Shown here piece by piece: positions 1-16,793 of a stretch of 19,111 nt of DNA; within the stretch, counting starts at the first letter, position 1, and each line of letters begins with the position of its first letter. The notes under the pieces were generated by a model. The model was given only the letters and a program-made list of their open reading frames with translations, did not search any database and was not told where the DNA came from. The position numbers and the translations under genes were made by a program. The DNA is from Dysgonamonadaceae bacterium (lineage in GTDB: Bacteria > Bacteroidota > Bacteroidia > Bacteroidales > Azobacteroidaceae), in NCBI GenBank assembly GCA_031256775.1, contig JAIRPX010000154.1, positions 1-19,111 on the forward strand. The letters run 5' to 3'.

Positions 1-541
1 AAGCATAATCGGTTACGGCAATATTCAGTTTTTCCGTAACAATCAATTCTACGGGACGATATATTCCTCCGTAAACTCCGAATAATGTGTGATTTACCGG
101 AATAACGTCGGGACGCGAAGCATTGTCCGCTTTTACTAAAATTTCATTTTCCTGTCCGTATTTCAACAGTTTAGTCATTTCGATTACAAAAGCGGAATAC
201 CCTCCTCTGTGGTTTCCCGCCAGCGTTCCGTTTACATAAACTTCCGCTACCGCCGCCACGCCTTCAAACCGGAGAAATACGCGCTTGTCGGACAAGGATT
301 TATCGGGCGTATATGATTTCTTGTAATAAGCTTCGCCGGCATAAAAGATGTTTTTCTTTACCTGCATATCTTCTGCATTCCAAGTGTGTGGAATTTTAAC
401 AGGCTGCCAAGTTTCGTTCAGTGTCTTAGGCAGATTCTCGGCTTTTTTAAATAACCAGCCGTCGTTAAACGGCCGGTTATCGCGGCTAAAAGCCGAAGTT
501 GCTATAAATGTAACAAGTAATATCAAGAAAAATCTGTTCAT
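1..541 (-). CDS. Glycoside hydrolase family 2 (beta-galactosidase/beta-glucuronidase type), N-terminal ~180 aa only; the gene runs off the window start
   Basis: The minus-strand ORF starts at ATG 541..539, 6 nt downstream of the M60 gene stop, and stays open to position 1. It is absent from the ORF track because it is partial. The translation begins MNRFFLILLVTFIATSAFS (signal peptide), then ...NDGWLFKKAE...WQPVKIPHTWN...VFLRFEGVAAVAEVYVNGTLAGNHRGGYSAFVIEMTKLLKYGQENEILVKADNASRPDVIPV. This matches the GH2 N-terminal sugar-binding domain pattern (W.F..., PHTWN, L.F.GV...A.VYVNG...GGY..F..DIT..L..G.EN.L.V.V.N). Confidence 0.75.
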   Translation of the reverse strand, partial: MNRFFLILLVTFIATSAFSRDNRPFNDGWLFKKAENLPKTLNETWQPVKIPHTWNAEDMQVKKNIFYAGEAYYKKSYTPDKSLSDKRVFLRFEGVAAVAEVYVNGTLAGNHRGGYSAFVIEMTKLLKYGQENEILVKADNASRPDVIPVNHTLFGVYGGIYRPVELIVTEKLNIAVTDYA

Positions 542-547
542 TTCCAA

Positions 548-3500
548 TTAGTTTACAACTATTTTTGACATATATCTTTCCGTACCGCTCTTCACTTCTA
601 TGATGTATGTTCCTTTGAGGTCAATAGTTTGTTTGACAAAGCCAGCATTTATCTTCTGTTCCGATACTTTTGCCCCGGAAACAGTATAAATATTGACTAC
701 TCCATCCGAAAATTTACCGGTCGACTTTACCGTAAAAGGCTGTCCTGCTTTTCCCGGATTGGGATAAATGCTTATTCCCTGTTCGCCGTCCGGAAACTTC
801 AGGCCGGTTGTTGTTTTTGCAGCAATATTGATATCCAAATGGTTTGTTACCTTTACGGTCAGGCTATATTTCTCCGGTACTACAGCCGCATCACTTAAAA
901 TCGGGATTACTGTGTCGCCGTCGACAGTTACGGTCAATTCGTTCGCATCGGGTGCTAATGTGAAGTCAATCGTATAATCGCTGTCTTCGTCTTCCAAGTG
1001 AACGCCTGCCTGTGAGGTAATTACCTTGTCGTTTGTTGTCACATTCACTTTGAATTTCAATGGAGGAGGCACGGGCAACTGTTCTCCGGACGACTTGATG
1101 CCGGCATTAAACTCAGCTACCTGTATGGTATTTCCGCTTGACTTGTCCCAATCTTCAATATCCACGCGGATATAACGGTACGACACTTCCGGAAATTCAA
1201 TGACAATTTCATTGTCGTTCTTCGCATAATCGATTACATAATGTTCATAAACCGGCGTGAATACCGTGTTATCGCCCGATCCGTAAACGGATATCTGCCT
1301 TGCCCTGATCCATGCGGAGGTATTGCCTGCATTGCGATGCAAATAACTTACGTAATTGAACATTTGTTCGCCTTGCATGTCAATCGTGAACGAAGGTATG
1401 TAACCAGTCGGCCCGGTTACATTTCCTACTGTTTTCCCCGGCTTAATAAATGAGAATGCAGAGGTTGTATTCCCGTCAATGATGTTCACCGGATTATCGC
1501 CGCCTACGGTAGCATCCGGCACGCCTTCAATGGAAGTGGTAATTGTCCAGTTTGTTCTGTCAAGCGGATTAGCCGTTGATACTTCCGGACTTGAAGAAGT
1601 AATGCCGCGCAAGGCTAAGGGCATCCATGCAGGACGGGCTTGTCCCGTAACCAAAGCAAGCTCTTCGGCCGTGCGGTTGATGTCAGCCAGATCAAGAATC
1701 TCGCCTTTTGTCTTTGCATCAGCCATTTTTGCCCGCAGCTTTGCTTTCACTTCGGCATCCGTTACACGTATTCCCCAGATATTAAAGAACTCGGTCAAAT
1801 CGTAACCGGATACCTGCGAGGCTTTCCAAATCAGATAAGAGCGCCGTTCTTCAGCTCCGCCGCCGGTAACTTTTTCTTCACGCACTACACGGTGCAGGTT
1901 TTTGTAGAAATCGTCGCTGAAAATTAAGAATAATTGTTCCCAAACCATGAAACGCAACTCGTCGCGGTTGAAACCGGTAATGCTTTGCAGCAGTTCGGAA
2001 TCCATGTCATATATCCGCTTTGAAAACGGGAGCTTCAGGTAGGTGTTTTGCGCCCCTTCCCACCGTTCGGCGGAAGTACGGTTATAGCCTGCGCCCTGAA
2101 TATTCCGTTCTGTCACATACGAATAAATATTAACGGTCGATTCGGTTGCCAGGTTAATCATATACGCAGGTTGCTGGTGCTGGTGTCCCAGCTCGTGACC
2201 CAGCATCCATGAGTTGTTGCTTGCAGTTCCCAGCTTTGTCAGGTAACGGGCGCGGCTGCCGTGGGGATAACCGGTATAACCGGCCGAACTGGCATGGGGG
2301 TTTTCGCTGGTATTTTCCGTCAGAAGGAATCTCACTTCGCCGGTTTTCAGGCGGTGATGCAAGGGATTCGGGTCGCCGTTGTCCATACCGCTTATTTCGT
2401 CTTCCTTAGCGAGCAGGGTATGTATGGACTCCATCCATTCGTCCTTATTTTCGTCGATGGAGAATTGCAGGGCAGCCTCGCGCGTAGCCGCCGCCACAAT
2501 ATAATCGGACTGGTAGAGGACGTCGGGCGTTTGATAGTTGTTCATCATGCTTGCAAACTCAGCATGTGGAGTAACTCCGTATATATAGCGCGGCGCGCGC
2601 ACATGTTCGCTGCCGTCTGTAAAAGTAATTCTTGCCCGTCCTTTCGGATCGGCATTTCCGTCATTGACAAAACTCAGCCAGATGAGGCCGCCCAAATGAT
2701 TGGTAACTGTATTCACCCCGGCTGTCAGCGTGGTTGATGTGCCGGTATTCCGTCCGTCCACATTGAATCCCAGCGTTCCTACGGTAAGAACCGGCATCAC
2801 ATTCTGATCTGCCGCGGCAAGGATTTCGACGTTTACTTCCACTTTTTTCCCGGCTTCCACATAGAAGCCTGTGGGTTGCCTGTCGTATTTTTTATGTCCC
2901 TGACACAAGCGCATCCGTTCTTTTTCAGCGCTGTTAATCTGATTGATTTCGATTGCCGAAGGATAAGGCGTAGTAATATTAACTTGTTCCTTCGTTGCCG
3001 AGATGGAAAGATTCATGTCTGCGGTAACGTTTGCGATGCGTATCTTGTCGCCTTCTATTGTTGCGCCGCCGGTTACAACCGGATTTTCGTAATCGGTTTT
3101 CAATCTGAAGATAGCTGTAAACTCGCTGCCGTTGTCTATTCGGGCAAAATAGGGTGTAACATTTTCGATGCCTTCACCCGTACTTACGATGACGCTATGT
3201 TTAACCATTCCGGGAGGTAAATCGGTCTTTCCCAGTCCAAATTCGGCGATTTGCATGGTGCTGCCGCTTCCGGAGCCTGTTCCCGGATAATCAGGATGCC
3301 GGCTGCTGTAAATATCGCTCCACATTACAAGCCTAATTCTGACATACCGGCCGGTAGATTGCGGTACGTCTATTTTATATGTATTCGGATCGGTAACTTC
3401 GGGGGTACTTGTAGTATATCCGGCTATATTCGGAATCCATACGATATCGGTATTAATTTTAGTGAAGTTTGTACCATCGTTGCTGATTTCAATATCAATA

Positions 3501-3853
3501 CCATATACACGCAGATATTTGTAGCTATTACCACCGCGGTGACGCCATTTGATATAATCAAACGTTTGCGCCGATTGCATATCCACGGTAAATGAAGGTA
3601 TGAAATCAGAAGGTTGTTTGGGTACGGCGCCGTAATTCTTACCCGGTTTTACCAGCGAAAGGAATGTCGCGGCATTGTCGTCAAACATGTGTTCCGGCAA
3701 TCCTGTCGTGCCGTCGACTACATAGCCGTAGTTTGTTGCAGTTTGCGTAGTTACCGCCCAATTCGTACGGTCAATGTCTGTTTCGGTTGCTGTCTGCGCG
3801 GTCATTGCTATTGTTAATAACAACGACGAAAAAAATAAGGTTAATCGTTTCAT
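548..3853 (-). CDS. Secreted M60-like (enhancin-type) zinc metallopeptidase, predicted mucin-type glycoprotease, with two discoidin (F5/8 type C)-like modules and a T9SS C-terminal sorting domain
   Basis: The 1101-aa ORF starts with ATG and carries an SPI-type signal peptide (MKRLTLFFSSLLLTIAMTAQ) with no lipobox Cys. Residues ~27-209 form a discoidin-like module (RTNW...GLPEHMFDD...YIKWRHR...YLRVYGIDIEISNDGTNF...RYVRIRL...STMQIAEFGLGK) followed by a GTGSGSGS linker. The M60 catalytic core contains the gluzincin motif HELGH at residues 553-557 with a downstream Glu (HELGHQHQQPAYMINLATE). A second discoidin-like module spans residues ~765-916. The last ~75 aa (ISIYPNPGKAGQPFTVKSTGKFSDGVVNIYTVSGAKVSEQKINAGFVKQTIDLKGTYIIEVKSGTERYMSKIVVN) match the Por/T9SS CTD pattern. 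Confidence 0.8.
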   Translation of the reverse strand: MKRLTLFFSSLLLTIAMTAQTATETDIDRTNWAVTTQTATNYGYVVDGTTGLPEHMFDDNAATFLSLVKPGKNYGAVPKQPSDFIPSFTVDMQSAQTFDYIKWRHRGGNSYKYLRVYGIDIEISNDGTNFTKINTDIVWIPNIAGYTTSTPEVTDPNTYKIDVPQSTGRYVRIRLVMWSDIYSSRHPDYPGTGSGSGSTMQIAEFGLGKTDLPPGMVKHSVIVSTGEGIENVTPYFARIDNGSEFTAIFRLKTDYENPVVTGGATIEGDKIRIANVTADMNLSISATKEQVNITTPYPSAIEINQINSAEKERMRLCQGHKKYDRQPTGFYVEAGKKVEVNVEILAAADQNVMPVLTVGTLGFNVDGRNTGTSTTLTAGVNTVTNHLGGLIWLSFVNDGNADPKGRARITFTDGSEHVRAPRYIYGVTPHAEFASMMNNYQTPDVLYQSDYIVAAATREAALQFSIDENKDEWMESIHTLLAKEDEISGMDNGDPNPLHHRLKTGEVRFLLTENTSENPHASSAGYTGYPHGSRARYLTKLGTASNNSWMLGHELGHQHQQPAYMINLATESTVNIYSYVTERNIQGAGYNRTSAERWEGAQNTYLKLPFSKRIYDMDSELLQSITGFNRDELRFMVWEQLFLIFSDDFYKNLHRVVREEKVTGGGAEERRSYLIWKASQVSGYDLTEFFNIWGIRVTDAEVKAKLRAKMADAKTKGEILDLADINRTAEELALVTGQARPAWMPLALRGITSSSPEVSTANPLDRTNWTITTSIEGVPDATVGGDNPVNIIDGNTTSAFSFIKPGKTVGNVTGPTGYIPSFTIDMQGEQMFNYVSYLHRNAGNTSAWIRARQISVYGSGDNTVFTPVYEHYVIDYAKNDNEIVIEFPEVSYRYIRVDIEDWDKSSGNTIQVAEFNAGIKSSGEQLPVPPPLKFKVNVTTNDKVITSQAGVHLEDEDSDYTIDFTLAPDANELTVTVDGDTVIPILSDAAVVPEKYSLTVKVTNHLDINIAAKTTTGLKFPDGEQGISIYPNPGKAGQPFTVKSTGKFSDGVVNIYTVSGAKVSEQKINAGFVKQTIDLKGTYIIEVKSGTERYMSKIVVN
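551..778 (-). other. Coding segment for the T9SS (Por secretion) C-terminal sorting domain of the M60-like peptidase
   Basis: The C-terminal ~76 residues contain the YPNP motif, an IYTVSGAKV motif (cf. IYDLSGRKV-type), a GTYIIEV motif (cf. GVYFVKV-type) and a basic C-terminal tail. This is the characteristic beta-sandwich CTD of T9SS cargo. Confidence 0.65.
2183..2197 (-). other. HELGH zinc-binding motif codons of the M60-like catalytic domain
   Basis: The reverse complement of 2183..2197 is CAC GAG CTG GGA CAC, which encodes H-E-L-G-H. A Glu lies 14 residues downstream of the second His (LATE), the gluzincin third-ligand position. Confidence 0.7.
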
Positions 3854-3876
3854 AATTGTTTGTTTTTATAATTTGA

Positions 3877-3904
3877 GTAGAGACGCGGTATGCCACGTCT
3901 CTAC
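3877..3904 (-). promoter_or_regulatory. GC-rich stem-loop in the 75-bp gap between the discoidin lipoprotein gene and the M60 peptidase gene; no U-tract follows, so a possible intra-operon attenuator or RNA-stability/processing hairpin
   Basis: gtagagacg (3877-3885) pairs perfectly with cgtctctac (3896-3904) around the loop cggtatgcca. On the transcribed minus strand the hairpin is followed by tcaaattataaaaacaaacaatt and then the ATG, so no T-run follows it. Confidence 0.4.
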
Positions 3905-3928
3905 TGCATTCAAAATCCACATGATAAT

Positions 3929-5245
3929 CTATTCAATAACTATTTTTCCTAATCCGAATTCGGCTATTTGCATTGTATTGCCGCTCAAGGCGCCACTTCC
4001 GGGATAGTTGGGATGCTGATACTTGTCGGGAGCATAGTTCCTGCTCTGTACAACCAAATTCACCTTGACATAACGGTAGGACGATTTGGTTATCGGAATT
4101 ACATAGGGCGCATCTTCTACGGAAGTGACAGACCCGACATACGAAACTTTTTGCGGAATCCAAACGATATCGGCATTAGACCCGGCAGGCTCGGCAGGAG
4201 GTATTACGGTAAAATTAGTTCCGTCGTTGCTGCCTTCCACGATGACGCCATATACCCGCAGGTAATTGTAGGTATTAGATCCTACGCTTCCATTCGCGTT
4301 GCTGTAAGTTCCATTGCGGTGACTCCACTTGATGTATTCAAACTCCTGCGCTGTTTTCATATCAACGATAAACGAGGGAGGGGTGGATTCTGCCGGAGGA
4401 GCTACTCCGTTGATAGAGCCGCCCGGTTTCACCAGTGACAGGTAGGAACCGGCTTGTTCGTCAAACATGTGTTCGGGCAATCCTGTTACGGGAGCGGCCT
4501 GTGTACCGCCGTCCCACATATAGCCGTAATCGTTGTGGGTTTGCGTGGTTACCGTCCAGCCGGAGCGGTCTATGTCCACATTTCTTATTACCAGATCGAG
4601 CACAGTAACGGTAACGTCCCTTGAAAGGTTGCTGCCGTCGGCGGTTCTAATTGTAATCGTTGTGGAACCTACGTTTACGGGACTTACAATACCGGTTGCA
4701 GTAACAGTTGCAATCGATGCATCGTTGGAGGTATAAGTGACAGTTTTATCCCATGTATCCGCGGGCGTCAGACTTACACAGGCGCCAAGGTCGAATGTAT
4801 TTCCTCCGATTTTCAGTTCAAAGTTGCTGCCGGCAGCCGTTACGTTAATGGCTGTGGCTTTTACCATGTGGTCGATAATATTCACTATGAATCTTGTACT
4901 AACTCCCGATCCGTCGGTAGCGCCGACAATTAGCGTGTCGGTACCGAAAGTCTTCGGCTTGAGCAGTCCCGCTTCGGTTACTTCCATCAAGTCGGGACGC
5001 ATGTTGGAGAATGTTACCTTTGGGTTTTTTGCATTTTTCGGCAATATCTCGACATTCAGCTGTAATTCCGTGTTATCTTTCAGAGAAATCTGCATGGAGG
5101 GCTTTCCCGCGCTCACATAGACCGCTTCTTTAATGCCGATTGCGGTAACTTTGCCATCGTTTTCCGGTTCAAATCCCTGAGGTTCGCAGCCGGGCATCAT
5201 CACAGTAATAATTACCAGAAGTGATAAATATATAATCTTTTTCAT
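3929..5245 (-). CDS. Cell-surface lipoprotein with two Big_2 (bacterial Ig-like) domains and a C-terminal discoidin-like (F5/8 type C / DUF5000-like) module; SusE/F-position surface glycan-binding protein candidate
   Basis: The 438-aa ORF starts with ATG and has a lipoprotein-type signal (MKKIIYLSLLVIITVMMPGC) followed by an acidic stretch (CEPQGFEPENDGK). Two Ig-like repeats follow (VTAIGIKEAVYVS... and ATAINVTAAGS...). The C-terminal module RSGWTVTTQTHNDYGYMWDGG...GLPEHMFDEQAGSYLSLVKPGG...YIKWSHRNG...YLRVYGVIVEGSNDGTNFTVI...RYVKVNLVVQS...NTMQIAEFGLGK is about 50-55% identical to the N-terminal module of the adjacent peptidase. The gene lies immediately downstream of susD. Confidence 0.75.
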   Translation of the reverse strand: MKKIIYLSLLVIITVMMPGCEPQGFEPENDGKVTAIGIKEAVYVSAGKPSMQISLKDNTELQLNVEILPKNAKNPKVTFSNMRPDLMEVTEAGLLKPKTFGTDTLIVGATDGSGVSTRFIVNIIDHMVKATAINVTAAGSNFELKIGGNTFDLGACVSLTPADTWDKTVTYTSNDASIATVTATGIVSPVNVGSTTITIRTADGSNLSRDVTVTVLDLVIRNVDIDRSGWTVTTQTHNDYGYMWDGGTQAAPVTGLPEHMFDEQAGSYLSLVKPGGSINGVAPPAESTPPSFIVDMKTAQEFEYIKWSHRNGTYSNANGSVGSNTYNYLRVYGVIVEGSNDGTNFTVIPPAEPAGSNADIVWIPQKVSYVGSVTSVEDAPYVIPITKSSYRYVKVNLVVQSRNYAPDKYQHPNYPGSGALSGNTMQIAEFGLGKIVIE

Positions 5246-5270
5246 ATTTATTTATTTTGACGGTTGTTAA

Positions 5271-7271
5271 TTAACGTTTTATATCCTGCCATCCGGGGCT
5301 TTGCGTCAGGTTTTTATTCAATTCGAGTTCCTGAAGGGGAATCGGATTGTAATAATATCTGTCGTCCCATTTCACGACGCCATTGCTTACATTCGGGCTT
5401 TTCGGATAGCCGACGATGAAGCCTTCGCTATCTACGAATACATCTGAATTGAGCGTAGCTTTCGGCGCATTTTTCGCCTTGCTTGTATTTGTGCCGTCGT
5501 ACAGTTTTTGTTTTTCTGCCGTAAATTTCATGCCTCTTATGGGCTTTTCAATAAACCTTCCGGCTTTCCAGCGTACCAAATCTTCGCGGCGAAGGCCTTC
5601 CATTGCCATTTCTATGCGGCGTTCGCGGCGTATTTCGCGAAGAATGGGACTCGGAACGTATCCCGCATATTGCCGGTAAAGATTATCCAAGTGAGTATCG
5701 GCAGGAATGTTCTGCAAAGTCAGCTTGCTGTTGGGATATTTGGAAAAATCAAATCCTGCGCGTTGACGCAAGACATTGACGGTCTTGTCCAAATCCTCAT
5801 TTGTAATGGTTCCCAGTTCCGCTTTGGCTTCGGCATACATCAACAAGGCTTCCCCATAACGGAAAATCAAGGCTGTCTGCGAACCACTGGTAGTAGATCC
5901 GTTGTCTATCTGCTCGTTTGTCCAGTGCTTGATAAACATATAGCCGGTAACGCAAGGGCCGGCTGTCGGCGTTTGATTGGCAGTCGGACAGTTGTATGTA
6001 ATTTCCGGATACTTAAGCCCTTGCAGCGCCTGATTGATTGCGCCCCCGTTATCGTCCCTGTTAAAGACAGTGACATATTCGCCCGGCTTCACTACGGTTT
6101 GCCGCAGGCGCGGGTCGCGGTTGTCAAGCTCTCGCCAGTCGTCGCCGTCATAGCCTTTGAAAAGGGGGCTTGAGGCAGCCGGCAGGCCATCAATACACAA
6201 GTATTCGTCTATCAAGTCTTTGGTGGCTCCCTTACAATAGCGTCCGCTTGCATTTCCGCGGTTCATATTGAAGTATCGCGAGGTTCCGTGCCCCAGCTTG
6301 GAGCCGTCATATACCCGTGCGAGGATGGCTTCCTTGTGGTCACCACCCGTCATGCCGTTCAGCTTGAAGAGATGCCAGTACGGGTCGTTTCCTACTTCGG
6401 CGCTCGGTACATTATATAACTGATACTTGTTTGTCGCCATAATCGCTTCGCAGGCTGTTGCACATTCTTCAAGGAACCTGTTGGCCGTGTTTTGCAAGCC
6501 CAATTCGGTATGATACTTTCGGAAAGTTCCTTCAAACAGGCAGAAACGCGCTTTCAGGAAGTTTGCCATGTCGCGGTTGATGCGTCCTGTTGGTCCGCCT
6601 GTGTTGTTCATATACTGCACGGCGTAGTCGAGGCATTTCATCACGCTATCCACAAGTTGCGTTCTTGGCGTACGCGGGGAATACAATTCGGGAGAATTGG
6701 TATTCAAATCTTTTTCCAGCCAAGGCGCTTCTCCGAAGGCGACTATCTTCCAGTAATAATCCCAAGCCTTAAAGAAATAAGCCTCGGCGGCGTATTTGTT
6801 CAGGATGTCGGGGCTGCTCACCGAGCCTTCCGCTTCGCGGTAATGGCTCAGGAAATAGTTGATTGTACGCAGGTTACCCCACCGCCAGCCGGTATTGTTG
6901 CCATCGTCGAGCGAAGTTACCGCGCTGGCCGGCACTTGCCATGTACCTTGCATGCGGTTAACAATATCGCCCGAAGTATTGGAAAATCCAATGGCGTTAT
7001 CTGTGAAAATGTCGCCGTATATGATATAACTTCCGCGCGTAATGTAGAACGGTGGAGCATAACTGTAAGCATTGCCTGTCTGATGCCCCATGCAATATAC
7101 ATTGTATAATTGATTAAGGTACAAAGGCAAGTCGCCTTCATTTTTTAGAAAAACACCTTCGGCAAGCGTATTATAAGGATCTTGCTGCATAAAATCGTCG
7201 TTACACGAGATCAGGGTAAATCCTGCGCATATACAAACGATTGTAATATATTTTTTTATTATTTTTTTCAT
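5271..7271 (-). CDS. susD: SusD/RagB-family nutrient-binding outer membrane lipoprotein
   Basis: The 666-aa ORF starts with ATG 20 bp downstream of the SusC-like gene. Its lipoprotein signal has the lipobox and an acidic export signal (GFTLISCNDDFMQQDP). It is aromatic-rich and sits in the canonical SusC-SusD pair position. Confidence 0.85.
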   Translation of the reverse strand: MKKIIKKYITIVCICAGFTLISCNDDFMQQDPYNTLAEGVFLKNEGDLPLYLNQLYNVYCMGHQTGNAYSYAPPFYITRGSYIIYGDIFTDNAIGFSNTSGDIVNRMQGTWQVPASAVTSLDDGNNTGWRWGNLRTINYFLSHYREAEGSVSSPDILNKYAAEAYFFKAWDYYWKIVAFGEAPWLEKDLNTNSPELYSPRTPRTQLVDSVMKCLDYAVQYMNNTGGPTGRINRDMANFLKARFCLFEGTFRKYHTELGLQNTANRFLEECATACEAIMATNKYQLYNVPSAEVGNDPYWHLFKLNGMTGGDHKEAILARVYDGSKLGHGTSRYFNMNRGNASGRYCKGATKDLIDEYLCIDGLPAASSPLFKGYDGDDWRELDNRDPRLRQTVVKPGEYVTVFNRDDNGGAINQALQGLKYPEITYNCPTANQTPTAGPCVTGYMFIKHWTNEQIDNGSTTSGSQTALIFRYGEALLMYAEAKAELGTITNEDLDKTVNVLRQRAGFDFSKYPNSKLTLQNIPADTHLDNLYRQYAGYVPSPILREIRRERRIEMAMEGLRREDLVRWKAGRFIEKPIRGMKFTAEKQKLYDGTNTSKAKNAPKATLNSDVFVDSEGFIVGYPKSPNVSNGVVKWDDRYYYNPIPLQELELNKNLTQSPGWQDIKR

Positions 7272-7291
7272 ATTCTTCCGTTATTTAAAAT

Positions 7292-10200
7292 TTAAAATGT
7301 AATCTGAGCACCAACGGCAATTGTTCTCTTTTGTGGATAGGCGTCCGAAATTTGATCGGGGTCAAAAATAGACGGGATTTCCGTAATTTCAAACAAGTTG
7401 TAACCCGACAGGGTAAAGCGCAGTTTTTCAACATGCAGTCTTTTTATCAGAGAAGCAGGCACAGTATAACCCAATACAGCCTGTTTCATACGCAGATAAG
7501 CTCCGTTGACCAGCCATCCTGTCTGTACGGCAGGTCCTCCGGCGGTAGAGCTATAACGGGGAAACTTCGCGTCGATCTGGTCAGGCTTCCACGAACGTTC
7601 GTACATCCACCGGCTGCCGGCGTTGTTTGTTCCGCCGCCCCAATAAGTGGTGCTGCCGATCCACAGGTCGCGCTTGGCGACGCCCTGGAACAACATGCTG
7701 AGGTCGAAACCTTTCCACGAAGCGCCCAGCGTAAGGCCAAACTTGTAACGCGGCGTATTGTTTCCTATGATGCGCCGGTCACCCGGATCGTCGGCCGTAT
7801 TGGAGCCGGAGTTGATAATTCCGTCGCCGTTCAGGTCTTTCCGCCACGCATCGCCGGGCCAGACATTGCCACCCTGATAAGGACCGTAGAATTTATAGCT
7901 GTTGCCATCGACTATAAGATCTTCCATTTGCAGAATGCCTCCGGTTTCGTATCCCCAGATTTCGCCAACGTTCATACCTTCATAGTAAAGATAATCTCCC
8001 AGCGTTTTTATGGGGTTGGAAGGATAACTCAGCACTTTGGCCATAGCATCCGACAAAACGAGGCCTGCATTGTACTGCAATCCGTTGGCGAGCTTGTCTT
8101 TCCATTCCAGGCTGAGTTCCCATCCTTTTGAGCGAAGCGCCCCGCTATTTTCACGCGGAGCCGAAACGCCCATCAAATTGGGATATGCAACGCTTCCTTC
8201 CACCAGGATATCGGTGGTTTTGCGTTCAAATACGTCTAAAGAAAAGTTCAGGCGGTTTTGAAAGAACCCAGCGTCCAGCCCAATGTTGGTGGTTGCCGCT
8301 TTTTGCCAGGTCAAGGTAGGCGACACAAGGGACGGCGCGTTTACCGTATTGCTCCAGCTTCCGTCAATCCAGTAATTGGAAGCCGATGAGCTCATTGTCG
8401 CCTGATAGGGATAATAAGAATCGGGCTGGCTACCCAATTTACCATACGATCCCCTTATTTTAAGATTTGAAAGCCAATTTTTCGAAAAATCCATAAAACC
8501 TTCTTCCGAGATTCTCCATCCGACAGAGAAAGAGGGGAAGAAAAAGTATCGTCCGTTAGGTGTAAAACGGCTGCTACCGTCGTAGCGACCATTGACTTCA
8601 AATAAATATTTCCCTGCGAAATTATAATTGATCCGGCCGAAAGCTGCTCTTCCGGTGCGTTTTTGCGCCGAAGTTTCTATTGTATTTAAAGTGGGATCTT
8701 CTGTTGCGCTTGGATTTAAAATATTGGGTGAAAGTAAATTACGTAGATTAAGCGCCGACTGATCGTATTCTACGTATTCCTGATTATACCCGACAATAGC
8801 CGAAAGCGTATGTTTTTCCTTGAATGTTTTGTTGAAATCGGCATACACATTGATCTGGTAATTGTCGGTAACGTCTTTTTCAAATCTTCCCCTGTTTTCC
8901 TTGTATTCCTGTTGCTCGCTTACGGGCGTCCATGTATAGGTGAGATAGTAATGCGAAGGATCGACGCGCCTCAATGTACGTCCTTGCGGCGAATAGGAAA
9001 GATCTGCCTTGAGCTTCAGGATTTTCGGGATAACGATAAATTCCGGCGACACGGCCAAAACCGTAGTCCACCGCTTGGTTACCGTCCGGTTGCCGTAATT
9101 CAGCCATGCAAGATAATTATCCGTCCACTGCTCGCCGCTCGGATCGGTCTGCAAAGTCTTTATGGGCATATTGATATTCTTGTCGGCGTCCTGTTTCAAT
9201 ATCGACCAGATAGTACCCTTATAACTCGGCACGTAAGGTTCTTCGTAGCTGTAACGGTTATAATTGACTTTTGTTTCCACATTAAACCAATCGGTTACTT
9301 TTGCATTAAAGCGGGTAGCGATGTTGTAGCGGTTGTATTGGTCTTCGCCGATTTTATACATGCCGTCTTGCGTCATGTAACCCAGCGAAAGATGATAGGC
9401 GATTTTATCCGATCCTCCCGACAGGCTCACGTTATGCTTTTGTGTAGGCGCGTAGTCGCGAACCACTTCTTTGTAAGGATTCATATTTCCAACCCATACG
9501 ATTGAGTTTCCGTTCATTATATACCGGTTTTCCGGATTGGTTGGATCTGCCATGTATTTTTCGATCGCTTCCATCTTTCTCTTGTCCAAATCGCTTGGCT
9601 GATTGTTGACAGAGGTCCACTGGGTATTTTGCATCACGAAGCGTTGAATTTCATAAGCGTTCATAATGTCGGGGAGGGCGGAGGGCTTGTCATACGAAAG
9701 ATCATAATTGTAGCTGATTTTTCCCTTTTGGTTGAATTTACCCGCTTTGGTTGTAATCAACACGACTCCCCATGTTGCTTTTGTTCCGTAAATGGCCGAA
9801 GCTGAAGCATCCTTAATTACACTCATGCTTTCAACATCGTTCGGATTCATCTGGTTCAGCAATGTGGAGGTCATTTCCACTCCATCCACTAAAATTAACG
9901 GTTCGCCGTTTTTAAGTTCCCATCTGGAGTCTGTCGTATTGTAGTCGATAGAGGTAGTTCCACGAATATTAAAACTGGGTACCGTGTTGGGCTTCCCGTC
10001 GCTCATGGAAATATTCAGGTTAGGAACAACGCCTTGTAAGGCTTGGCCGATATTGGCCACGGGGCGGTTTTCAAATGTTTCGGATCCAACAGAGGAAACG
10101 GCTCCGGTCAGGTTTACTTTTTTTTGTGTCTGGAAGCCAACGACCACCACATCGTCCAATAATTTTGAATCTTCCGCAAGTTTTACGTTAATTGTTGTTT

Positions 10201-10495
10201 GCGTTCCCGCTTTGTACTCTTGCGTAGCATATCCGATATACGAAAATACCAGAACAGTGTTTGGACCGTCGGCAGTGATACTGTATTTACCGTCAATATC
10301 GCTTACCGTTCCTTTTGTTGTGTTTTTAAGAGTAACACTGACTCCTACGAGAGGTTCGCTGCTCATGTCTGTTACTGTTCCTGTAATTGTATTCTGCGCC
10401 CTGCAAAGGCAACAGACACAAAAACCGAAAAAGAGTAACAGAAAGATTTTGCATTTGAATCTTTTTCTAAAATTTTCGATAGTACAATGTTTCAT
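7292..10495 (-). CDS. susC: SusC/RagA-family TonB-dependent outer membrane transporter
   Basis: The ORF-track start at 10501 is a TTG. The first in-frame ATG is at 10495 (MKHCTIENFRKRFKCKIFLLLFFGFCVCCLCRAQ signal), so the protein is ~1067 aa. A carboxypeptidase-regulatory-like N-domain (NTITGTVTDMSSEPLVGVSVTLKNTTKGTVSDIDGKYSI) is followed by a TonB-box region (DDVVVVGFQTQ), a plug and a long beta-barrel ending in the aromatic C-terminus AQITF. There is no STN/N-terminal signalling extension. Confidence 0.9.
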   Translation of the reverse strand: MKHCTIENFRKRFKCKIFLLLFFGFCVCCLCRAQNTITGTVTDMSSEPLVGVSVTLKNTTKGTVSDIDGKYSITADGPNTVLVFSYIGYATQEYKAGTQTTINVKLAEDSKLLDDVVVVGFQTQKKVNLTGAVSSVGSETFENRPVANIGQALQGVVPNLNISMSDGKPNTVPSFNIRGTTSIDYNTTDSRWELKNGEPLILVDGVEMTSTLLNQMNPNDVESMSVIKDASASAIYGTKATWGVVLITTKAGKFNQKGKISYNYDLSYDKPSALPDIMNAYEIQRFVMQNTQWTSVNNQPSDLDKRKMEAIEKYMADPTNPENRYIMNGNSIVWVGNMNPYKEVVRDYAPTQKHNVSLSGGSDKIAYHLSLGYMTQDGMYKIGEDQYNRYNIATRFNAKVTDWFNVETKVNYNRYSYEEPYVPSYKGTIWSILKQDADKNINMPIKTLQTDPSGEQWTDNYLAWLNYGNRTVTKRWTTVLAVSPEFIVIPKILKLKADLSYSPQGRTLRRVDPSHYYLTYTWTPVSEQQEYKENRGRFEKDVTDNYQINVYADFNKTFKEKHTLSAIVGYNQEYVEYDQSALNLRNLLSPNILNPSATEDPTLNTIETSAQKRTGRAAFGRINYNFAGKYLFEVNGRYDGSSRFTPNGRYFFFPSFSVGWRISEEGFMDFSKNWLSNLKIRGSYGKLGSQPDSYYPYQATMSSSASNYWIDGSWSNTVNAPSLVSPTLTWQKAATTNIGLDAGFFQNRLNFSLDVFERKTTDILVEGSVAYPNLMGVSAPRENSGALRSKGWELSLEWKDKLANGLQYNAGLVLSDAMAKVLSYPSNPIKTLGDYLYYEGMNVGEIWGYETGGILQMEDLIVDGNSYKFYGPYQGGNVWPGDAWRKDLNGDGIINSGSNTADDPGDRRIIGNNTPRYKFGLTLGASWKGFDLSMLFQGVAKRDLWIGSTTYWGGGTNNAGSRWMYERSWKPDQIDAKFPRYSSTAGGPAVQTGWLVNGAYLRMKQAVLGYTVPASLIKRLHVEKLRFTLSGYNLFEITEIPSIFDPDQISDAYPQKRTIAVGAQITF

Positions 10496-10506
10496 AAACA
10501 ATAGAT

Positions 10507-11649
10507 TTAAAATTTATAATATGATTGATAAATTTCACTTCCTGCCAGCAAGAATGCGCCCACGCCGTAAGCAGCAGTCATATTTGCCGTCACTTTTTTA
10601 GGATCTGCACCGACAGGCTGCACCCATCCGAGTTTCCCGTTTTTATCTATGGCAGAAACCAGAGCTGTCCACGATTTTTTCACGACAGGTGTATATTTTT
10701 TTTTATCCAGCAAGTCCTTGTTGACACCGTAAGCCAATGCGTAGGTAATAAGCGCCGTAGCGCTGGTTTCAGGTGCCGGGTAGCTCGCAGGATCCAGCAG
10801 GCTTGCATGCCAAAAACCATCTTTATCCTGCAATGCCGCCAATTGCGAAACAAACTCTTTGAACAGATTTTCGTAAAAAGGCCGGTACTCTGAGTTTTCA
10901 GGAAGCAGTTTCAAAATATTTACTAATCCTGCGGCCACCCAGCCGTTGCCTCTTCCCCAAAAGACTTTTTCCCCATTCGCTTCTTTTTTGTTAAAATAGC
11001 TGCTATCTCTAAAGAACAGTTTCTTTTTTCGGTCATATAAAAAATTATATGTTCTTTTAAATTCTCTGTCCATAAATTGAAGATATTCGTCGTTTCCTTC
11101 GATTTTTGTCAGATGTGCATAAACAGGGGGAGCCATGAACAAAGCGTCGCACCATGTCCATGATTGTTTGTTGGATATGCTCATTGCGGAATCGGGGGGA
11201 TTACTGATGATCCAGTCTGCTCTTTCCTTTGTGGAACAGAGCATTTTATTCTCTTTGTAGAGATTGAACATATTCAGGTAAAATTGTCCGATACAGAGTT
11301 CGTCGGCATGATAGAGTCCGTATATAGGGTATTTAAGAAAATTGGCGGGAATATTCCAGTTACTTGTTAAACCGATGTTTTCCAGCCACTGAAAACAGGA
11401 TGAATCGTCGGCTATTTTTGCCCATTCAAACATTCCCAAGTATAAAACGGCATTTGTCCATGAATCTATTCCATAATCATGCAGATTATCGGTTGTAGAG
11501 TACTTGAAGTTGTCGATTTGCCAGTCGGCGACTTTTTTCATTGAAGATTTTATATCCGGTAACTTTAATGCCGACCTGCTCCAACAGGGAAAAACAGATA
11601 TTATTCCCCAGAAAAGCAAAAAAATGACAATGTTCTTGTGTCTTTTCAT
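10507..11649 (-). CDS. Glyco_hydro_88-superfamily (GH88/GH105) unsaturated glucuronyl / rhamnogalacturonyl hydrolase-like enzyme with a signal peptide; first gene of the locus
   Basis: The 380-aa ORF starts with ATG and has an N-terminal signal (MKRHKNIVIFLLFWGIISVFPCWS). It shows (alpha/alpha)6-type motifs shared by the UGL/YteR families (DSWTNAVLYLGMFEW, YHADELCIGQFYL, WTWCDALFMAPPVYAHL, GRGNGWVAAGL). Its stop codon lies 11 nt before the SusC ATG. Confidence 0.65.
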   Translation of the reverse strand: MKRHKNIVIFLLFWGIISVFPCWSRSALKLPDIKSSMKKVADWQIDNFKYSTTDNLHDYGIDSWTNAVLYLGMFEWAKIADDSSCFQWLENIGLTSNWNIPANFLKYPIYGLYHADELCIGQFYLNMFNLYKENKMLCSTKERADWIISNPPDSAMSISNKQSWTWCDALFMAPPVYAHLTKIEGNDEYLQFMDREFKRTYNFLYDRKKKLFFRDSSYFNKKEANGEKVFWGRGNGWVAAGLVNILKLLPENSEYRPFYENLFKEFVSQLAALQDKDGFWHASLLDPASYPAPETSATALITYALAYGVNKDLLDKKKYTPVVKKSWTALVSAIDKNGKLGWVQPVGADPKKVTANMTAAYGVGAFLLAGSEIYQSYYKF

Positions 11650-11687
11650 ATAGTATATTTTGTTTTTTTTAAGTTTTTAAGGTGCAA

Positions 11688-11695
11688 CAAAAATA
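11688..11695 (-). promoter_or_regulatory. Candidate Bacteroides-type -7 promoter element (TAnnTTTG) for the GH88/105-susC-susD-lipoprotein-M60-GH2 operon
   Basis: The reverse complement of caaaaata (11688-11695) is TATTTTTG, matching TAnnTTTG. It lies ~39 nt upstream of the ATG at 11649. No well-spaced -33 TTTG was found. Confidence 0.35.
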
Positions 11696-11700
11696 TGTAT

Positions 11701-11767
11701 TTTGGTTTTCAAGTTAATATTTTTTGCATTGCTATTATTGCCTTATTTTTTGCTGTAATTGCCAAAT
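11701..11767. repeat. Copy 1 of a ~67-bp near-perfect direct repeat in the locus upstream region
   Basis: Copy 1 reads tttggttttcaagttaatattttttgcattgctattattgccttattttttgctgtaattgccaaat. It differs from the copy at 11821-11887 at only ~2-3 positions. Each copy contains two internal ATTTTTTGC(N)ATTGC sub-motifs. Confidence 0.85.
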
Positions 11768-11820
11768 AGCTAATATTCAGTATGTTATATAGTGTATGAA
11801 TTGCAAAAAAAAGTATAAGG

Positions 11821-11887
11821 TTCGGTTTTCAAGTTAATATTTTTTGCATTGCTATTATTGCTTTATTTTTTGCTGTAATTGCCAAAT
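11821..11887. repeat. Copy 2 of the ~67-bp direct repeat, 120-bp period, separated from copy 1 by a 53-bp spacer
   Basis: Copy 2 reads ttcggttttcaagttaatattttttgcattgctattattgctttattttttgctgtaattgccaaat. The flanks diverge immediately outside the repeat. Confidence 0.85.
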
Positions 11888-12197
11888 GGTTGTGGTATAG
11901 ATAATTGTGATATGATATTATGAAGAAGAAAAGCTGTCTCAACTCAGTTATTAAACAAATCTTTGTCACCAAAATAGTTACATCAAGAAATCGTATGTTT
12001 TGAAAAACCGGACAAATCGTGTATATATCTTATGGTATAGCTTCCTTAAATGGCGACAACATCCAAACTTTTCACTATTCTGTTTATTGAAAAGAAGGTG
12101 TTCAAAAACCATTTGTTTTTCAAATCAACCGTAACCTTTAATGTTTACTGCAATAAGCTTGTACTTTACTACTTGGTCTCGGCTTTCGACTTTCATC

Positions 12198-12218
12198 AAA
12201 AAGCGTTTTCTAAACGCC
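12198..12218 (-). terminator. Candidate rho-independent terminator for the NfeD-flotillin operon
   Basis: On the minus strand the sequence reads GGCGTTTagaAAACGC followed by TTTTTG. This is a 6-7 bp stem with a 3-nt loop and a U5 tract. It lies ~185 nt downstream of the flotillin stop at 12402. Confidence 0.3.
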
Positions 12219-12401
12219 ATCTTTCGAATGTAAAGGGGTGATGAAAGGCAATCCAATGGCAAAACAAAACGATTGTTTATTAATAAAAGTGCTATTTTTT
12301 AGGGAAGAATTTGGATATGAATTTAAGAAAGTTTTCACAAAGGAGCAAAAGTGCAACGTATTCATCGTCCATCTTTACTCCTTTGTGGAATAAGGCAAAA
12401 C

Positions 12402-13976
12402 TTACGCGAGATTATTATTGTCCGAATGTTTTCCTTTCAATGTGTTAGGGATTCCGGGAATGGTTTTCATGATATCAGTAACAGGAGCGATGGACGATAT
12501 CAAACCGGTAAGCAGGTTTGTCAAAGTACCTCCTTGAGTGGTATCCATGACATTGACATTACCTAAATTGATGTGTTCAAAAGCTTTCACTTGTTCGGCG
12601 GCGATATCTTTCCATTGATCGACCATTTTCCATTGGATTGCTACTTGCGGATTGTTTTCTGCCACTCTCACCATAGCTTCAAACCCTTCGGCTTGCGCCA
12701 ATAACGATGCTTTTTCGGCGGCGGCTTTTGCCAGTCCTTGTTGTTCGATCACTTTTGCGTGAGCCAATCCTTCGGCGGTAATAGCTTCGCCTTTTCCTTT
12801 ACCTTCGACAGCAACGGCGTCTGCGCGTCCTTGCGCTTCTATACGTTGTTTATTTGCGTTTGCTTCTGCTTCTTTTTCCAATTTCAATTGGTAGGCTTGG
12901 GCGTCGATCAATTTTTGTTGTTTGGCTATTTCTGCCGGAACAATTTGCTCTGCTTTCAAGGCGGCTTCTGTTCGTTTGGCTCTTGCTTCTTCGGCTTCTT
13001 TACGCGCTAATTCTTTGTTTTTTTCTATTTCGGCTTTAGCTCTTTCGTCAGCTGATAAGGCCAAACTTTGCGATTCGGCTTTAATTACTTCCAGTTCGGC
13101 ATTGGAGACTGTTATTTTTTTAGTTGCTTCGATTTCTCCGACACGGGCTTCGGAATCATATTTTGCAATATTGATATCCCTGTTTTTTTTAGCTTCAGCT
13201 ACGCGGGAATCACGTTCGGATTCGGCCTGGGCAACCGAAATACTCTGATCTCTTTGAGCGTTGGCGATAGCAATTAGCTCTTCTTTTTTTGTTGCGGCCA
13301 CTGTTGCATTTTTAATTTTCATCTGTTCGGCTACTTGGGTTTCTCCTTCGCGTTCGGCTGTCGAAATTTCCACATTAGCCTGATTGATCGCTTTGGCCTG
13401 GTCCTTTTTACCCAAAGCGACAATATATCCGGCTTCATCGCGGATATCAGTTATGTTAATGTTAATTAAATGCAACCCTATTTTGCGCAATTCGGTATCA
13501 ATAAGGCCTTTTGCTTTAAGTAAAAATTCATCTCTGTCAGCGTTTAGCTTTTCAATAGTCATATCGGCAATAATAGTTCTCATTTGACCGTAAACGATAT
13601 CTTTGACCAAGTCTTCAATTTCACCCCGTCCTAAGCCCAGAATGCGCTCTGCTGCTGCCTGCATCACATCCTGTTCGGTGCTGATACCTACGGTAACGGT
13701 GGTTGGTACATCCACTCTGATGTTTTGTGAAGACAACGCTTTTTGCAGGTTGCATTCAAACTGCAAAGGTTTCAACGACATGTAAGCATATCCCTGTAAG
13801 ACGGGAATAACAAACGCCGCTCCGCCCTGAATGCACTTGGATGATTTATTACCTCCTGTTTTACCATAGATTACCAAGATTTCATCCGATTTGCATTTTC
13901 TGAATCGGGATAAAATACCGATAAGCGAAAATACAATAAGCAAAACCAATACTCCAATAAAAATAATTAAATTCAT
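12402..13976 (-). CDS. Flotillin-family membrane protein (SPFH/band-7 domain; FloT/YqiK-like)
   Basis: The 524-aa ORF starts with ATG and has an N-terminal TM helix (MNLIIFIGVLVLLIVFSLIGIL). An SPFH domain (ILVIYGKTGG...GGAAFVIPVLQ...) is followed by a long Ala/Glu/Lys/Gln-rich coiled-coil region (EAEEARAKRTEAALKAEQ...) typical of the flotillin domain. A compositionally simple tail follows. Confidence 0.9.
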   Translation of the reverse strand: MNLIIFIGVLVLLIVFSLIGILSRFRKCKSDEILVIYGKTGGNKSSKCIQGGAAFVIPVLQGYAYMSLKPLQFECNLQKALSSQNIRVDVPTTVTVGISTEQDVMQAAAERILGLGRGEIEDLVKDIVYGQMRTIIADMTIEKLNADRDEFLLKAKGLIDTELRKIGLHLININITDIRDEAGYIVALGKKDQAKAINQANVEISTAEREGETQVAEQMKIKNATVAATKKEELIAIANAQRDQSISVAQAESERDSRVAEAKKNRDINIAKYDSEARVGEIEATKKITVSNAELEVIKAESQSLALSADERAKAEIEKNKELARKEAEEARAKRTEAALKAEQIVPAEIAKQQKLIDAQAYQLKLEKEAEANANKQRIEAQGRADAVAVEGKGKGEAITAEGLAHAKVIEQQGLAKAAAEKASLLAQAEGFEAMVRVAENNPQVAIQWKMVDQWKDIAAEQVKAFEHINLGNVNVMDTTQGGTLTNLLTGLISSIAPVTDIMKTIPGIPNTLKGKHSDNNNLA

Positions 13977-13995
13977 AATTTATAGTATAAAGTAA

Positions 13996-14502: not shown

Positions 14503-14552
14503 AATTTTATGCTTTAATTGTTATCAATCCTTTTATATATTTTAATCATTGC

Positions 14553-14560: not shown

Positions 14561-14660
14561 ATGAATTTAAAAATCAAAAAAAAGTTAATACCATGTTTTT
14601 TCTCCCAAAATCTTATTTTTTTTGCAAGAATATTGGCTGATAAAACGCTTCTTAATTTTC

Positions 14661-16789: not shown

Positions 16790-16793
16790 AACT

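Follow-up and report, generated by a model that had tools for sequence, protein, structure and literature searches.

Related CBM32-like modules of a lipoprotein and an M60-like peptidase in a probable Bacteroidia polysaccharide-utilization locus

The region described here is likely to be the surface-protein part of a Bacteroidia polysaccharide-utilization locus, probably one that serves an O-glycosylated protein or proteoglycan, and its three related F5/8-type-C (CBM32-like) modules, designated M1, M2 and M3, are likely to be old paralogues of one narrow travelling lineage. The window, i.e., the whole stretch of 19,111 nucleotides that was analyzed, is the Dysgonamonadaceae bacterium MAG contig JAIRPX010000154.1 (GCA_031256775.1, positions 1–19,111 of the forward strand); its source is probably an insect-gut bacterium.

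Organization of the locus

Genes were arranged in the order GH88, SusC, SusD, lipoprotein, M60-like peptidase and GH2, all on the reverse strand, as are the other features given below. The first of these encodes a GH88 unsaturated glucuronyl hydrolase (10507..11649; PF07470, 305.9 bits) and is followed by genes for a SusC-like TonB-dependent transporter (7292..10501; TIGR04056, 878 bits, cut-off 368), a SusD-like lipoprotein (5271..7271; PF07980, 159.8 bits), a second lipoprotein of 438 aa directly downstream of susD (3929..5245), an M60-like zinc metallopeptidase of 1101 aa that is a predicted T9SS cargo (548..3853) and the N-terminal part of a GH2 glycosidase, which is cut by the window edge (2..541). 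Adjacent susC-like and susD-like genes with GH88 and GH2 on the flanks identify the region as a polysaccharide-utilization locus. The GH2 was 81–83% identical to the GH2 genes that occupy this position in two related loci, L008 (Bacteroidia bacterium MS502-39), in which the gene order is identical to that of the window, and L010 (Dysgonomonas termitidis). A strong RNA hairpin (3876..3905; MFE -24.1 kcal/mol, z-score -5.7) lies in the 75 nt that separate the lipoprotein gene from the peptidase gene; none of 200 shuffled sequences equaled it in stability, and its stem is followed by no T tract. No match to BACON or GH109 was found anywhere in the window, and genes for the T9SS machinery are absent from it.

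Domains of the lipoprotein and the peptidase

The lipoprotein gene starts 25 nt downstream of susD and encodes a lipobox (MMPGC, aa 16–20) with Cys20 as the lipobox cysteine, two Ig-like domains and, at the C-terminus, M2. In agreement with a Big_2 match of 46.4 bits, the AlphaFold model had two Ig-like domains ahead of a beta-sandwich, and in Foldseek this model matched LigA Big_2 as well as F5/8/CBM32 structures (target TM-score 0.68 for 3f2z). The position after susD, the spacers and the terminal module are those of an SGBP, and surface exposure and glycan binding are predicted from this layout. Orthologues with 74–78% identity were noted in L008, L009 and L010.

The peptidase (MDR0506654.1, recorded at NCBI as 'M60 family metallopeptidase' from a Dysgonamonadaceae MAG) consists of a type-I-like signal peptide, M1, a spacer (X1), M60_N, the M60 catalytic domain, M3, a second spacer (X3) and a C-terminal sorting domain. 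The M60_N (aa 307–401) and catalytic (aa 418–694) domains together occupy 1772..2935, scored 31.9 bits for PF17291 and 119.7 bits for PF13402 (cut-off 25.8) and, among PDB sequences, matched 4fca, 5kd5 (BT4244) and 5kdn (ZmpB). An intact HELGH zinc motif is present at aa 553–557 (nt 2183–2197), with a Glu 13 residues past the second His. By its domains and HEXXH motif the protein is assignable to family M60 (enhancin / M60-like), of which O-glycoprotein-dependent activity is only a predicted property here.

X1, an 85-aa beta-rich spacer between M1 and M60_N (aa 210–294; 2972..3226), gave no match in the Pfam scan. On comparison by hhalign, it aligned to X3 with a probability of 60% (E 8.6e-5, 72 columns) and to the T9SS C-terminal domain with a probability of 0.8%. 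X3, which follows M3 (approximately aa 928–1015; 809..1072), was 48–57% identical to the corresponding part of the M60 peptidases from L002, L003 and L006. The sorting domain at aa 1029–1101 (551..769) is of T9SS type A (TIGR04183, 33.4 bits, cut-off 23; PF18962, 27.0 bits in the whole protein, which equals the cut-off of 27, and 31.0 bits in a fragment scan). The peptidase is accordingly classed with T9SS type-A cargo, for which secretion and surface attachment are predicted.

Identity and fold of the modules

The presence of three related modules in two adjacent genes, as put forward in a preliminary description of this DNA, was borne out by protein alignments of the segments 3227..3775, 3932..4582 and 1106..1561 and by a module HMM that was run on the six-frame translation and found exactly three copies and no fourth. 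M1 (peptidase aa 25–209; 3227..3781), which lies right behind the signal peptide, was 50% identical to M2 (lipoprotein aa 223–434; 3944..4579) over 211 columns (E 4e-65), whereas M3 (peptidase aa 762–919; 1097..1570) was 33% identical to M1 (E 2e-25) and 29% identical to M2 (E 8e-17). The similarity of M1 to M2 is far above that expected of F5/8 domains in general, and a profile of the M1/M2 type found only 230 representatives at E<=1e-3 among 1.84 billion proteins.

Assignment to HMM families succeeded for two of the three modules. Thus, M1 and M3 matched PF00754, whose fold is that of CAZy family CBM32, with 39.9 and 46.1 bits (gathering cut-off 28.2), whereas M2 had no PF00754 match and only a match to PF22633 (15.1 bits) below the cut-off of 27.8; M2 is placed in the F5/8 fold because it is 50% identical to M1 and because the lipoprotein model matched this fold. 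The AlphaFold model of M1 (pLDDT 77, pTM 0.79) matched CBM32 structures 3f2z, 4a44, 2j1a and 2v72 with a Foldseek probability of 1.00 and target TM-scores of 0.71–0.77; one of these, 4a44, is a complex with Tn antigen. At the level of sequence, the M1/M2 profile had no PDB match at E<=1 and M1 alone had none at E<=10, and the nearest PDB sequence to M3, domain 1 of galactose oxidase, matched at E 0.03. M3 was 80% and 76% identical to the equivalent modules of the L001 and L006 M60 peptidases, respectively. An alignment of clade A and clade B sequences (see below) indicated four loop insertions in M2 that are absent from M1 and correspond to low-pLDDT loops in the lipoprotein model.

Phylogeny of the modules

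In two neighbor-joining trees with bootstraps, M1 fell in clade A (100% in one tree, 88% in the other), M2 in clade B (100% in each tree) and M3 in a group of M60 C-terminal modules and PL8-lyase modules (95% support). Within clade A, where inner branching was weak (25–51% support), M1 grouped with the N-terminally fused copies that occur in L008 and L014, as well as with free T9SS module proteins. In the tree-set comparison, M1 was 63–65% identical to free clade-A proteins elsewhere as opposed to 57% to M2, which was 68–70% identical to clade-B proteins of other genomes, so that each module is nearer to copies from other genomes than to its neighbor. The lipoprotein (442 aa) and fused M60 peptidase (1095 aa) of L008, 78% and 77% identical to those of the window, carry an orthologous M1–M2 pair with 56% amino-acid identity, i.e., with the same divergence as the pair in the window. 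A quartet test on the window and L008 gave 107 sites that support orthology, 11 concerted (within-genome) sites and 4 cross sites. Between these two loci, dN and dS were 0.10 and 0.91 for M1 and 0.10 and 0.81 for M2, and the modules are under purifying selection.

The excess of concerted over cross sites would be expected if gene conversion between the adjacent genes, in occasional short tracts, had kept old paralogues partly similar, as would the pS of 0.61 for M1 and M2 of the window, compared with 0.72–0.74 for window–L008 cross pairs, and an exact run of 32 nt shared by the L008 modules at their start, unusual Ala codon included (DRANW). Such conversion nevertheless appears improbable. The 11 concerted sites were scattered over the whole module in the window rather than clustered, a codon bias common to the genes of one genome predicts the same small excess, pS of the L008 within-genome pair (0.73) was not below that of the cross pairs, and insertions and deletions specific to each clade were intact in both genomes.

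Distribution of the modules among related loci

Free clade-A proteins composed of a signal peptide, the module and a sorting domain are encoded directly after the M60 genes of L002, L003, L006 and L007, and free clade-B module proteins of related loci likewise end in a T9SS sorting domain. An N-terminal fusion to M60 was noted in L014 together with a free clade-B protein, whereas the order in P0025 was M60, M3, X3, clade-A module and sorting domain, i.e., a C-terminal fusion. The module has thus clearly been shuffled across genomes, where it forms the C-terminus of the lipoprotein, a free T9SS cargo or an N- or C-terminal fusion to the M60 peptidase. The lipoprotein encoded downstream of susD has M2 as its C-terminal module, and M3 is the standard, canonical C-terminal module of this M60 subfamily. 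The occurrence of clade-A modules, free or fused, beside M60 argues for a functional link. Pairing of the lipoprotein with M60 is not obligatory, since the lipoprotein orthologues of L009 and L010 have no adjacent M60 peptidase; in the D. termitidis locus, which is syntenic, the place of the M60 peptidase is taken by a protein that is related to the Akkermansia O-glycan protease (PDB 6z2o, E 2.9e-42) and likewise has an F5/8 module at its end. Related loci also carry PL8 lyases, GH88, GH2 and fucosidases.

That the module is always encoded beside the same partners, fused as well as separate, would also fit a physical interaction, in which the modules, instead of binding glycans, would be protein–protein docking domains that keep the lipoprotein, SusCD and the T9SS peptidase assembled at the surface; sugar-binding residues, moreover, could not be mapped because the M1/M2 profile had no PDB sequence match. 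We consider docking unlikely, given that the fold and the nearest structures are those of carbohydrate-binding CBM32 domains, that the experimentally studied analogue binds Gal/GalNAc (PMC11992087) and that the same module family is also joined to GH88 and PL8 lyases, as expected of a CBM.

Nucleotide identity between M1 and M2

The preliminary description regarded residual nucleotide identity between M1 and M2 as a mark of duplication or shuffling within the locus. The identity was confirmed, with exactly 7 differences in 38 positions between 3673..3710 and 4453..4490, and a quoted run of 26 nt with one mismatch was found to span 29 nt (17 + 11 exact). If one module had recently been copied between the two adjacent genes, the identity would be a remnant of this event, and the 31/38 matches, the overall nucleotide identity of 63%, the pS of 0.61, which was the lowest of all clade-A versus clade-B pairs, and the agreement in codon at 57 of the 98 residues other than Met and Trp that M1 and M2 share (36.7 expected from window codon usage) are all in this direction. 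Comparable values, however, were obtained between genomes. Thus, the ratio of observed to expected identical codons was 1.55 for M1 and M2 of the window and up to 1.46 for clade-A versus clade-B pairs from different genomes, and the latter pairs included 38-nt windows with up to 34/38 matches and exact runs of 19–25 nt, which equal or exceed those in the window. The stretches of nucleotide identity fall on shared motifs that do not vary among the 11 sequences of clades A and B, and dS between M1 and M2 was about 1.25–1.3. The quoted stretch is therefore real but no sign of recent duplication, because cross-genome pairs match as well at these invariant motifs. With the trees, the equally diverged L008 pair and the quartet test (107 versus 11 sites) also against it, recent duplication within the locus is very improbable, and of the two processes proposed only shuffling, as seen across genomes, is upheld.

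The window being a MAG contig and free module genes adjoining M60 genes elsewhere, the 1101-aa reading frame could in principle be an assembly or frameshift artefact that joins two such genes, but this explanation is highly improbable, as the fusion is uninterrupted and retains the same 85-aa X1 in three independent assemblies (window, L008 and P0024/L014) and X1 is neither a sorting domain nor an intergenic remnant.

Proposed function of the locus

Glycan binding by the modules, their location at the surface, cooperation between lipoprotein and peptidase and the nature of the substrate are inferred as follows. The lipid-anchored lipoprotein would bind glycan chains of the substrate beside the SusCD transporter, and the T9SS-anchored peptidase would bind the same substrate at the surface through M1 and M3, on either side of its catalytic domain, and cleave the peptide backbone. 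The resulting glycopeptides would be imported through SusC and trimmed by GH88, GH2 and other enzymes. The clade-A module, which elsewhere is a free secreted protein, is fused to the N-terminus of the peptidase (as M1) in the lineage of the window and to the C-terminus in another.

A common ligand specificity of lipoprotein and peptidase, and with it a hand-off of substrate from one to the other, is plausible by analogy. Identical specificity of M1 and M2 is not assured because of the four clade-specific loop insertions in M2, which are modeled with low confidence, and the two may not bind the same epitope.

More tentatively, clades A and B could represent an undescribed CBM32 subfamily for O-glycopeptidase loci of insect-gut Bacteroidia, the free form of which would be a surface glycan-binding protein anchored by way of T9SS instead of a lipid, and one that on repeated occasions became fused to one end or the other of the peptidase. 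If this is true and the ligand is an epitope of an insect-specific glycoprotein or proteoglycan, for which peritrophic-matrix mucin or a uronic-acid-bearing O-glycan would be candidates, the modules would provide new glycan probes and point to an unstudied nutrient source in the insect gut.

Comparison with known systems

The closest counterpart is the BT4240-50 PUL of B. thetaiotaomicron, in which Gal/GalNAc binding by the surface glycan-binding protein BT4245 is similar to that by the CBM32 of BT4244, an M60-like peptidase; in the model for this system, both CBM32s bind the same O-glycans at the surface, followed by backbone cleavage and SusCD import (PMC11992087). The design of a binding protein and an M60 peptidase with shared CBM32 is therefore already known, and the idea of a hand-off is not new. 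In both loci, a SusC/SusD pair precedes a lipoprotein that has one or more spacer domains and, at the C-terminus, a CBM32 (PMC11992087; PMC3267712); the M60-like peptidase encoded next to it carries a CBM32 on the N-terminal side of its catalytic domain, and a GH2 is also present. Thus, as in the BT4244/BT4245 type, an SGBP and an M60-like peptidase, each with a CBM32-type module, occur in one SusCD locus.

Differences between the two systems were also evident. BT4244 is a lipoprotein with a BACON domain, whereas the peptidase of the window lacks BACON, has a T9SS sorting domain in place of a lipid anchor and contains a second F5/8 module past the catalytic domain as well as the X1 and X3 spacers. 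The spacer of the lipoprotein consists of two Big_2-type Ig domains as opposed to DUF1735 in BT4245, and the companion enzyme is GH88 (with PL8 and fucosidases in relatives) as opposed to GH109. The modules themselves belong to a separate, narrow lineage; M2 stayed below the Pfam cut-offs, and the M1/M2 profile had no match among PDB sequences.

HC11 of B. fragilis and ZmpB and ZmpC of Clostridium perfringens (5kdn; PMC13003899) are M60-like mucinases from gut bacteria and resemble the peptidase in that CBM32 or F5/8 modules are attached to a HEXXH-containing M60 gluzincin core. In these enzymes, the attached modules work together with the catalytic domain when the substrate is a long glycoprotein, and CBM32 is required for cutting long mucin substrates (PMC13003899). 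The catalytic core of the window is distant from 5kd5 and 5kdn (E 3e-4 to 5e-4), its modules are of another lineage and, unlike these enzymes, it is encoded inside a SusCD locus with uronic-acid-processing enzymes.

The sorting domain (TIGR04183/PF18962) is one that the peptidase and the free module proteins of its relatives share with other T9SS type-A cargo, from which they differ in that the cargo is either a bare module of carbohydrate-binding type or a peptidase flanked by such modules. The M60 peptidase has no sequence relationship to OgpA of Akkermansia muciniphila (PDB 6z2o/6z2d), which is absent from the window, but the occurrence of a relative of OgpA in the peptidase slot of the D. 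termitidis locus supports an O-glycoprotein as the predicted substrate of this family of loci.

Locus layout and the three modules

All genes of the locus region lie on the minus strand. In order of transcription they encode a GH88 unsaturated glucuronyl hydrolase (10507-11649), a SusC-like transporter (7292-10501), a SusD-like protein (5271-7271), a 438-aa lipoprotein directly after susD (3929-5245), a 1101-aa M60-like metallopeptidase (548-3853) and the N-terminus of a GH2 glycosidase (2-541), which is cut by the contig end at the left edge and is 81-83% identical to the same-position GH2 genes of Bacteroidia bacterium MS502-39 (locus L008) and Dysgonomonas termitidis. Surface glycan-binding proteins are usually encoded in the position directly after susD. 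In the lipoprotein, named 'Ig-like domain-containing protein' by NCBI, a lipobox cysteine is accompanied by two Ig-like spacer domains; the peptidase ('M60 family metallopeptidase') has M60_N and M60 domains with an intact HELGH motif and a T9SS type-A sorting domain. A drop in GC content to 0.32-0.34 at 11001-12500, just upstream of the GH88 gene, marks the locus edge, beyond which the genes are of the housekeeping type (Band_7, LpxB, SurE and an M19/C26 peptidase fusion). No hybrid two-component regulator was present upstream of GH88 in the window; one was noted beside each of the related loci L009 and L010 (D. termitidis). Promoter and terminator scans gave counts not above those for shuffled sequence. 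A strong minus-strand hairpin (3876-3905; -24.1 kcal/mol, z -5.7), not followed by a T tract, lies in the spacer that separates the lipoprotein gene from the peptidase gene and may act in mRNA processing or stabilisation, or as an attenuator. An inverted repeat of other sequence, identified as a sequence repeat only, occurs at the same spacer position in L008 (about 9825-9872).

The three F5/8-type-C modules claimed in the preliminary description were located at the expected positions both by BLASTP between modules and by a six-frame search of the window with a module HMM, which indicated no other copies. BLASTP of M1 (3227-3781; peptidase aa 25-209) against M2 (3944-4579; lipoprotein aa 223-434) gave 50% identity (E 4e-65), and M3 (1097-1570; peptidase aa 762-919) was 33% identical to M1 (E 2e-25) and 29% identical to M2 (E 8e-17). 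Assignment by HMM to the F5/8-type-C family held for M1 and M3, which passed the Pfam cut-off, but not for M2, which fell below it; despite this, M2 is clearly homologous to M1 as judged from sequence similarity. An AlphaFold model of M1 (pLDDT 77) matched solved CBM32 structures with a Foldseek probability of 1.00, and the model of the whole lipoprotein had two Ig-like domains and, after them, an F5/8-like sandwich. Mapping of sugar-binding residues onto solved CBM32 structures was abandoned, as neither the M1/M2 profile nor M1 alone had sequence matches in the PDB and the fold search came without a residue-level alignment. The module lineage is narrow: of 1.84 billion proteins searched with a profile built from 11 M1/M2-type modules, only 230 representatives matched at E<=1e-3. 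Between the window and L008, dN/dS is about 0.11-0.12 for M1 and M2, which indicates purifying selection on both.

Ancestry of the modules

Relatives were gathered from metagenomes and genomes and compared in bootstrapped neighbour-joining trees. M3 clustered with the F5/8 modules found at the C-terminus of all related M60 peptidases, with 95% support for a group that also takes in the modules from PL8 lyases encoded nearby, and was 80% identical to the equivalent module of the M60 peptidase of locus L001. M1 was placed in clade A with 100% and 88% support, alongside small proteins in which the module stands between a signal peptide and a T9SS sorting domain. Clade B, at 100% support, took in M2, orthologues of the lipoprotein and small T9SS proteins built in the same way. 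Identity to clade-A proteins from other genomes was 63-65% for M1, as opposed to 57% between M1 and M2, and identity of M2 to clade-B proteins from other genomes was 68-70%.

Gene order in L008 is that of the window, with full-length identities of 78% for the lipoprotein and 77% for the fused peptidase, and the divergence between M1 and M2 in L008 equals that in the window. In a quartet test of the four M1 and M2 sequences from these two genomes, 107 sites supported orthology, 11 supported within-genome pairing and 4 supported cross pairing. The trees, the L008 locus and the quartet test thus oppose recent copying, and the M1/M2 duplication is, on these sequence comparisons, ancient and conserved. 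What stands of the earlier proposal of intra-locus duplication or shuffling is that the modules are paralogous and were shuffled across genomes.

Basis of the nucleotide identity between M1 and M2

The preliminary description had taken nucleotide identity between M1 and M2 as the residue of local duplication. The stretches cited, 3673-3710 and 4453-4490, differ at exactly 7 of 38 positions, as claimed. Of the shared motifs listed, DRxxWTVTTQT, GLPEHMFD, YIKWxHR, YLRVYG and TMQIAEFGLGK were invariant or nearly so in 11 of 11 clade A and B sequences. Comparable identity was noted across genomes: clade-A versus clade-B pairs from different genomes reached 34 of 38 positions. These pairs were scored by best window and longest run only, since identity within the fixed 38-nt span is invalid for L006_A, where an L006 insertion fills gap columns. 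In the GLPEHMFD stretch, M1 of the window matches the L001 clade-B copy exactly over 19 nt, as opposed to 17 nt with its own neighbour M2. Given invariant motifs and equal or longer runs across genomes, the nucleotide-identical stretch reflects amino-acid constraint plus preferred codons. Local duplication as its source was not borne out, since cross-genome pairs match equally well or better.

A codon alignment of M1 and M2 gave 63% nucleotide identity, pS 0.61, dS about 1.25 and dN 0.38. Identical residues were encoded by an identical codon in 57 of 98 cases, compared with 36.7 expected from codon usage in the window, and this excess was nearly equal in cross-genome clade-A versus clade-B pairs (ratio up to 1.46, versus 1.55 for M1-M2). 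A small within-genome excess was nevertheless noted (pS of 0.61 versus 0.72-0.74; 11 concerted versus 4 cross sites), which shared codon bias explains no worse than rare micro-conversion would. The quartet test argues against gene conversion as the origin of the identity in the window, and so does the scatter of the 11 within-genome sites along the whole module. In L008, the two modules begin with an exact match of 32 nt (approximately L008:10001-10040 and L008:9166-9205) that includes an Ala codon (DRANW) absent from the other sequences compared; this run is a candidate short gene-conversion tract, and no such tract was present between M1 and M2 in the window.

Module shuffling and spacers

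In L002, L003, L006 and L007, the gene that directly follows M60 encodes the clade-A module as a free T9SS protein. In the window, L008 and L014 (P0024), the clade-A module is joined to the N-terminal end of the peptidase, and in L013 (P0025) to its C-terminal end, in the order M60, M3, X3 spacer, module and sorting domain. Similarly, the clade-B module forms the C-terminus of the post-susD lipoprotein in the window, L008, L009 and L010, and a free T9SS protein encoded before the M60 gene in L001 and L014; the latter locus carries four modules across three adjacent genes. The module has been moved among the surface proteins of this locus type, and its occurrence as a separate protein in some genomes and as part of the peptidase in others speaks for a functional link between module and peptidase.

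The N-terminal fusion is not simple read-through of a free gene: X1, the 85-aa spacer after M1 (2972-3226), shows no similarity to sorting domains and resembles X3, the spacer after M3 (809-1072). The possibility that X1 is a sorting domain decayed after fusion by stop-codon loss was rejected on an hhalign probability of 0.8% against a sorting-domain alignment. X1 gave only a weak BLASTP match to the tail of the free clade-A protein P0004 (E 0.035), and more likely resembles X3 (hhalign probability 60%). Neither spacer has a Pfam family; the two look like distant relatives, and the peptidase may carry a repeated unit of F5/8 module plus spacer on both sides of its catalytic core.

The module lineage was also noted in other proteins (P0022, P0110, P0031, P0032 and P0167), occurring four times in one 2476-aa He_PIG/fn3 protein among them, N-terminal to a GH88 domain in P0110, together with Big_2, and N-terminally in P0031, P0032 and P0167, which are large proteins without Pfam families.

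Putative substrate and mechanism

Related loci carry PL8 lyases and GH88, GH2, GH29 and GH95 enzymes. The D. termitidis locus is syntenic with the window (HTCS regulator, GH88, SusC, SusD, lipoprotein orthologue, X, GH2 and fucosidase), and its peptidase slot, X (L010:10730-12853), encodes a 707-aa lipoprotein that carries HELGH at aa 370 and ends in an F5/8 module. Only the F5/8 part of this protein was recognised by Pfam; its core matched the Akkermansia O-glycan protease PDB 6z2o (E 2.9e-42). A 574-aa homologue was noted directly upstream of the C-fused M60 gene in L013 (8263-9987). That one and the same slot is filled by two unrelated families of O-glycopeptidase points to an O-glycosylated protein as the substrate, which probably bears uronic acids. 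The lipoprotein would capture glycan chains near SusCD, the surface-attached peptidase would bind through M1 and M3 and cut the backbone, and the resulting glycopeptides would be imported and then trimmed.

Comparison with known systems

M60-like peptidases commonly carry CBM32 modules (PMC3267712), and cleavage of long mucin substrates requires CBM32 (PMC13003899). The closest described system is the Bacteroides thetaiotaomicron PUL BT4240-50, in which the binding protein BT4245 and the M60-like peptidase BT4244 each have a CBM32 of similar Gal/GalNAc specificity and for which a capture-and-cleave model was already proposed (PMC11992087). The putative substrate hand-off between binding protein and peptidase suggested in the preliminary description, for which M1 and M2 would have to share a ligand specificity, is thus an already known design. 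In contrast with PUL BT4240-50, the peptidase in the window is predicted to be anchored by T9SS instead of lipid, has a second F5/8 module and X spacers, and is without a BACON domain; the companion enzymes are GH88 and, in relatives, PL8, and the module lineage is a separate one that Pfam recognises only in part. The comparison adds ties between module and peptidase, seen in the free, N-fused or C-fused forms of the former and in the OgpA-like O-glycan protease in the syntenic slot, and illustrates that invariant motifs, not recent copying, can account for short stretches of nucleotide identity between neighbouring modules. Because D. termitidis can be cultured and encodes the lipoprotein orthologue, ligand and substrate are accessible to experiment. 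The design of a binding protein and O-glycopeptidase with a shared CBM32, known from human-gut Bacteroides, is extended to a putative T9SS-anchored form in Dysgonamonadaceae.
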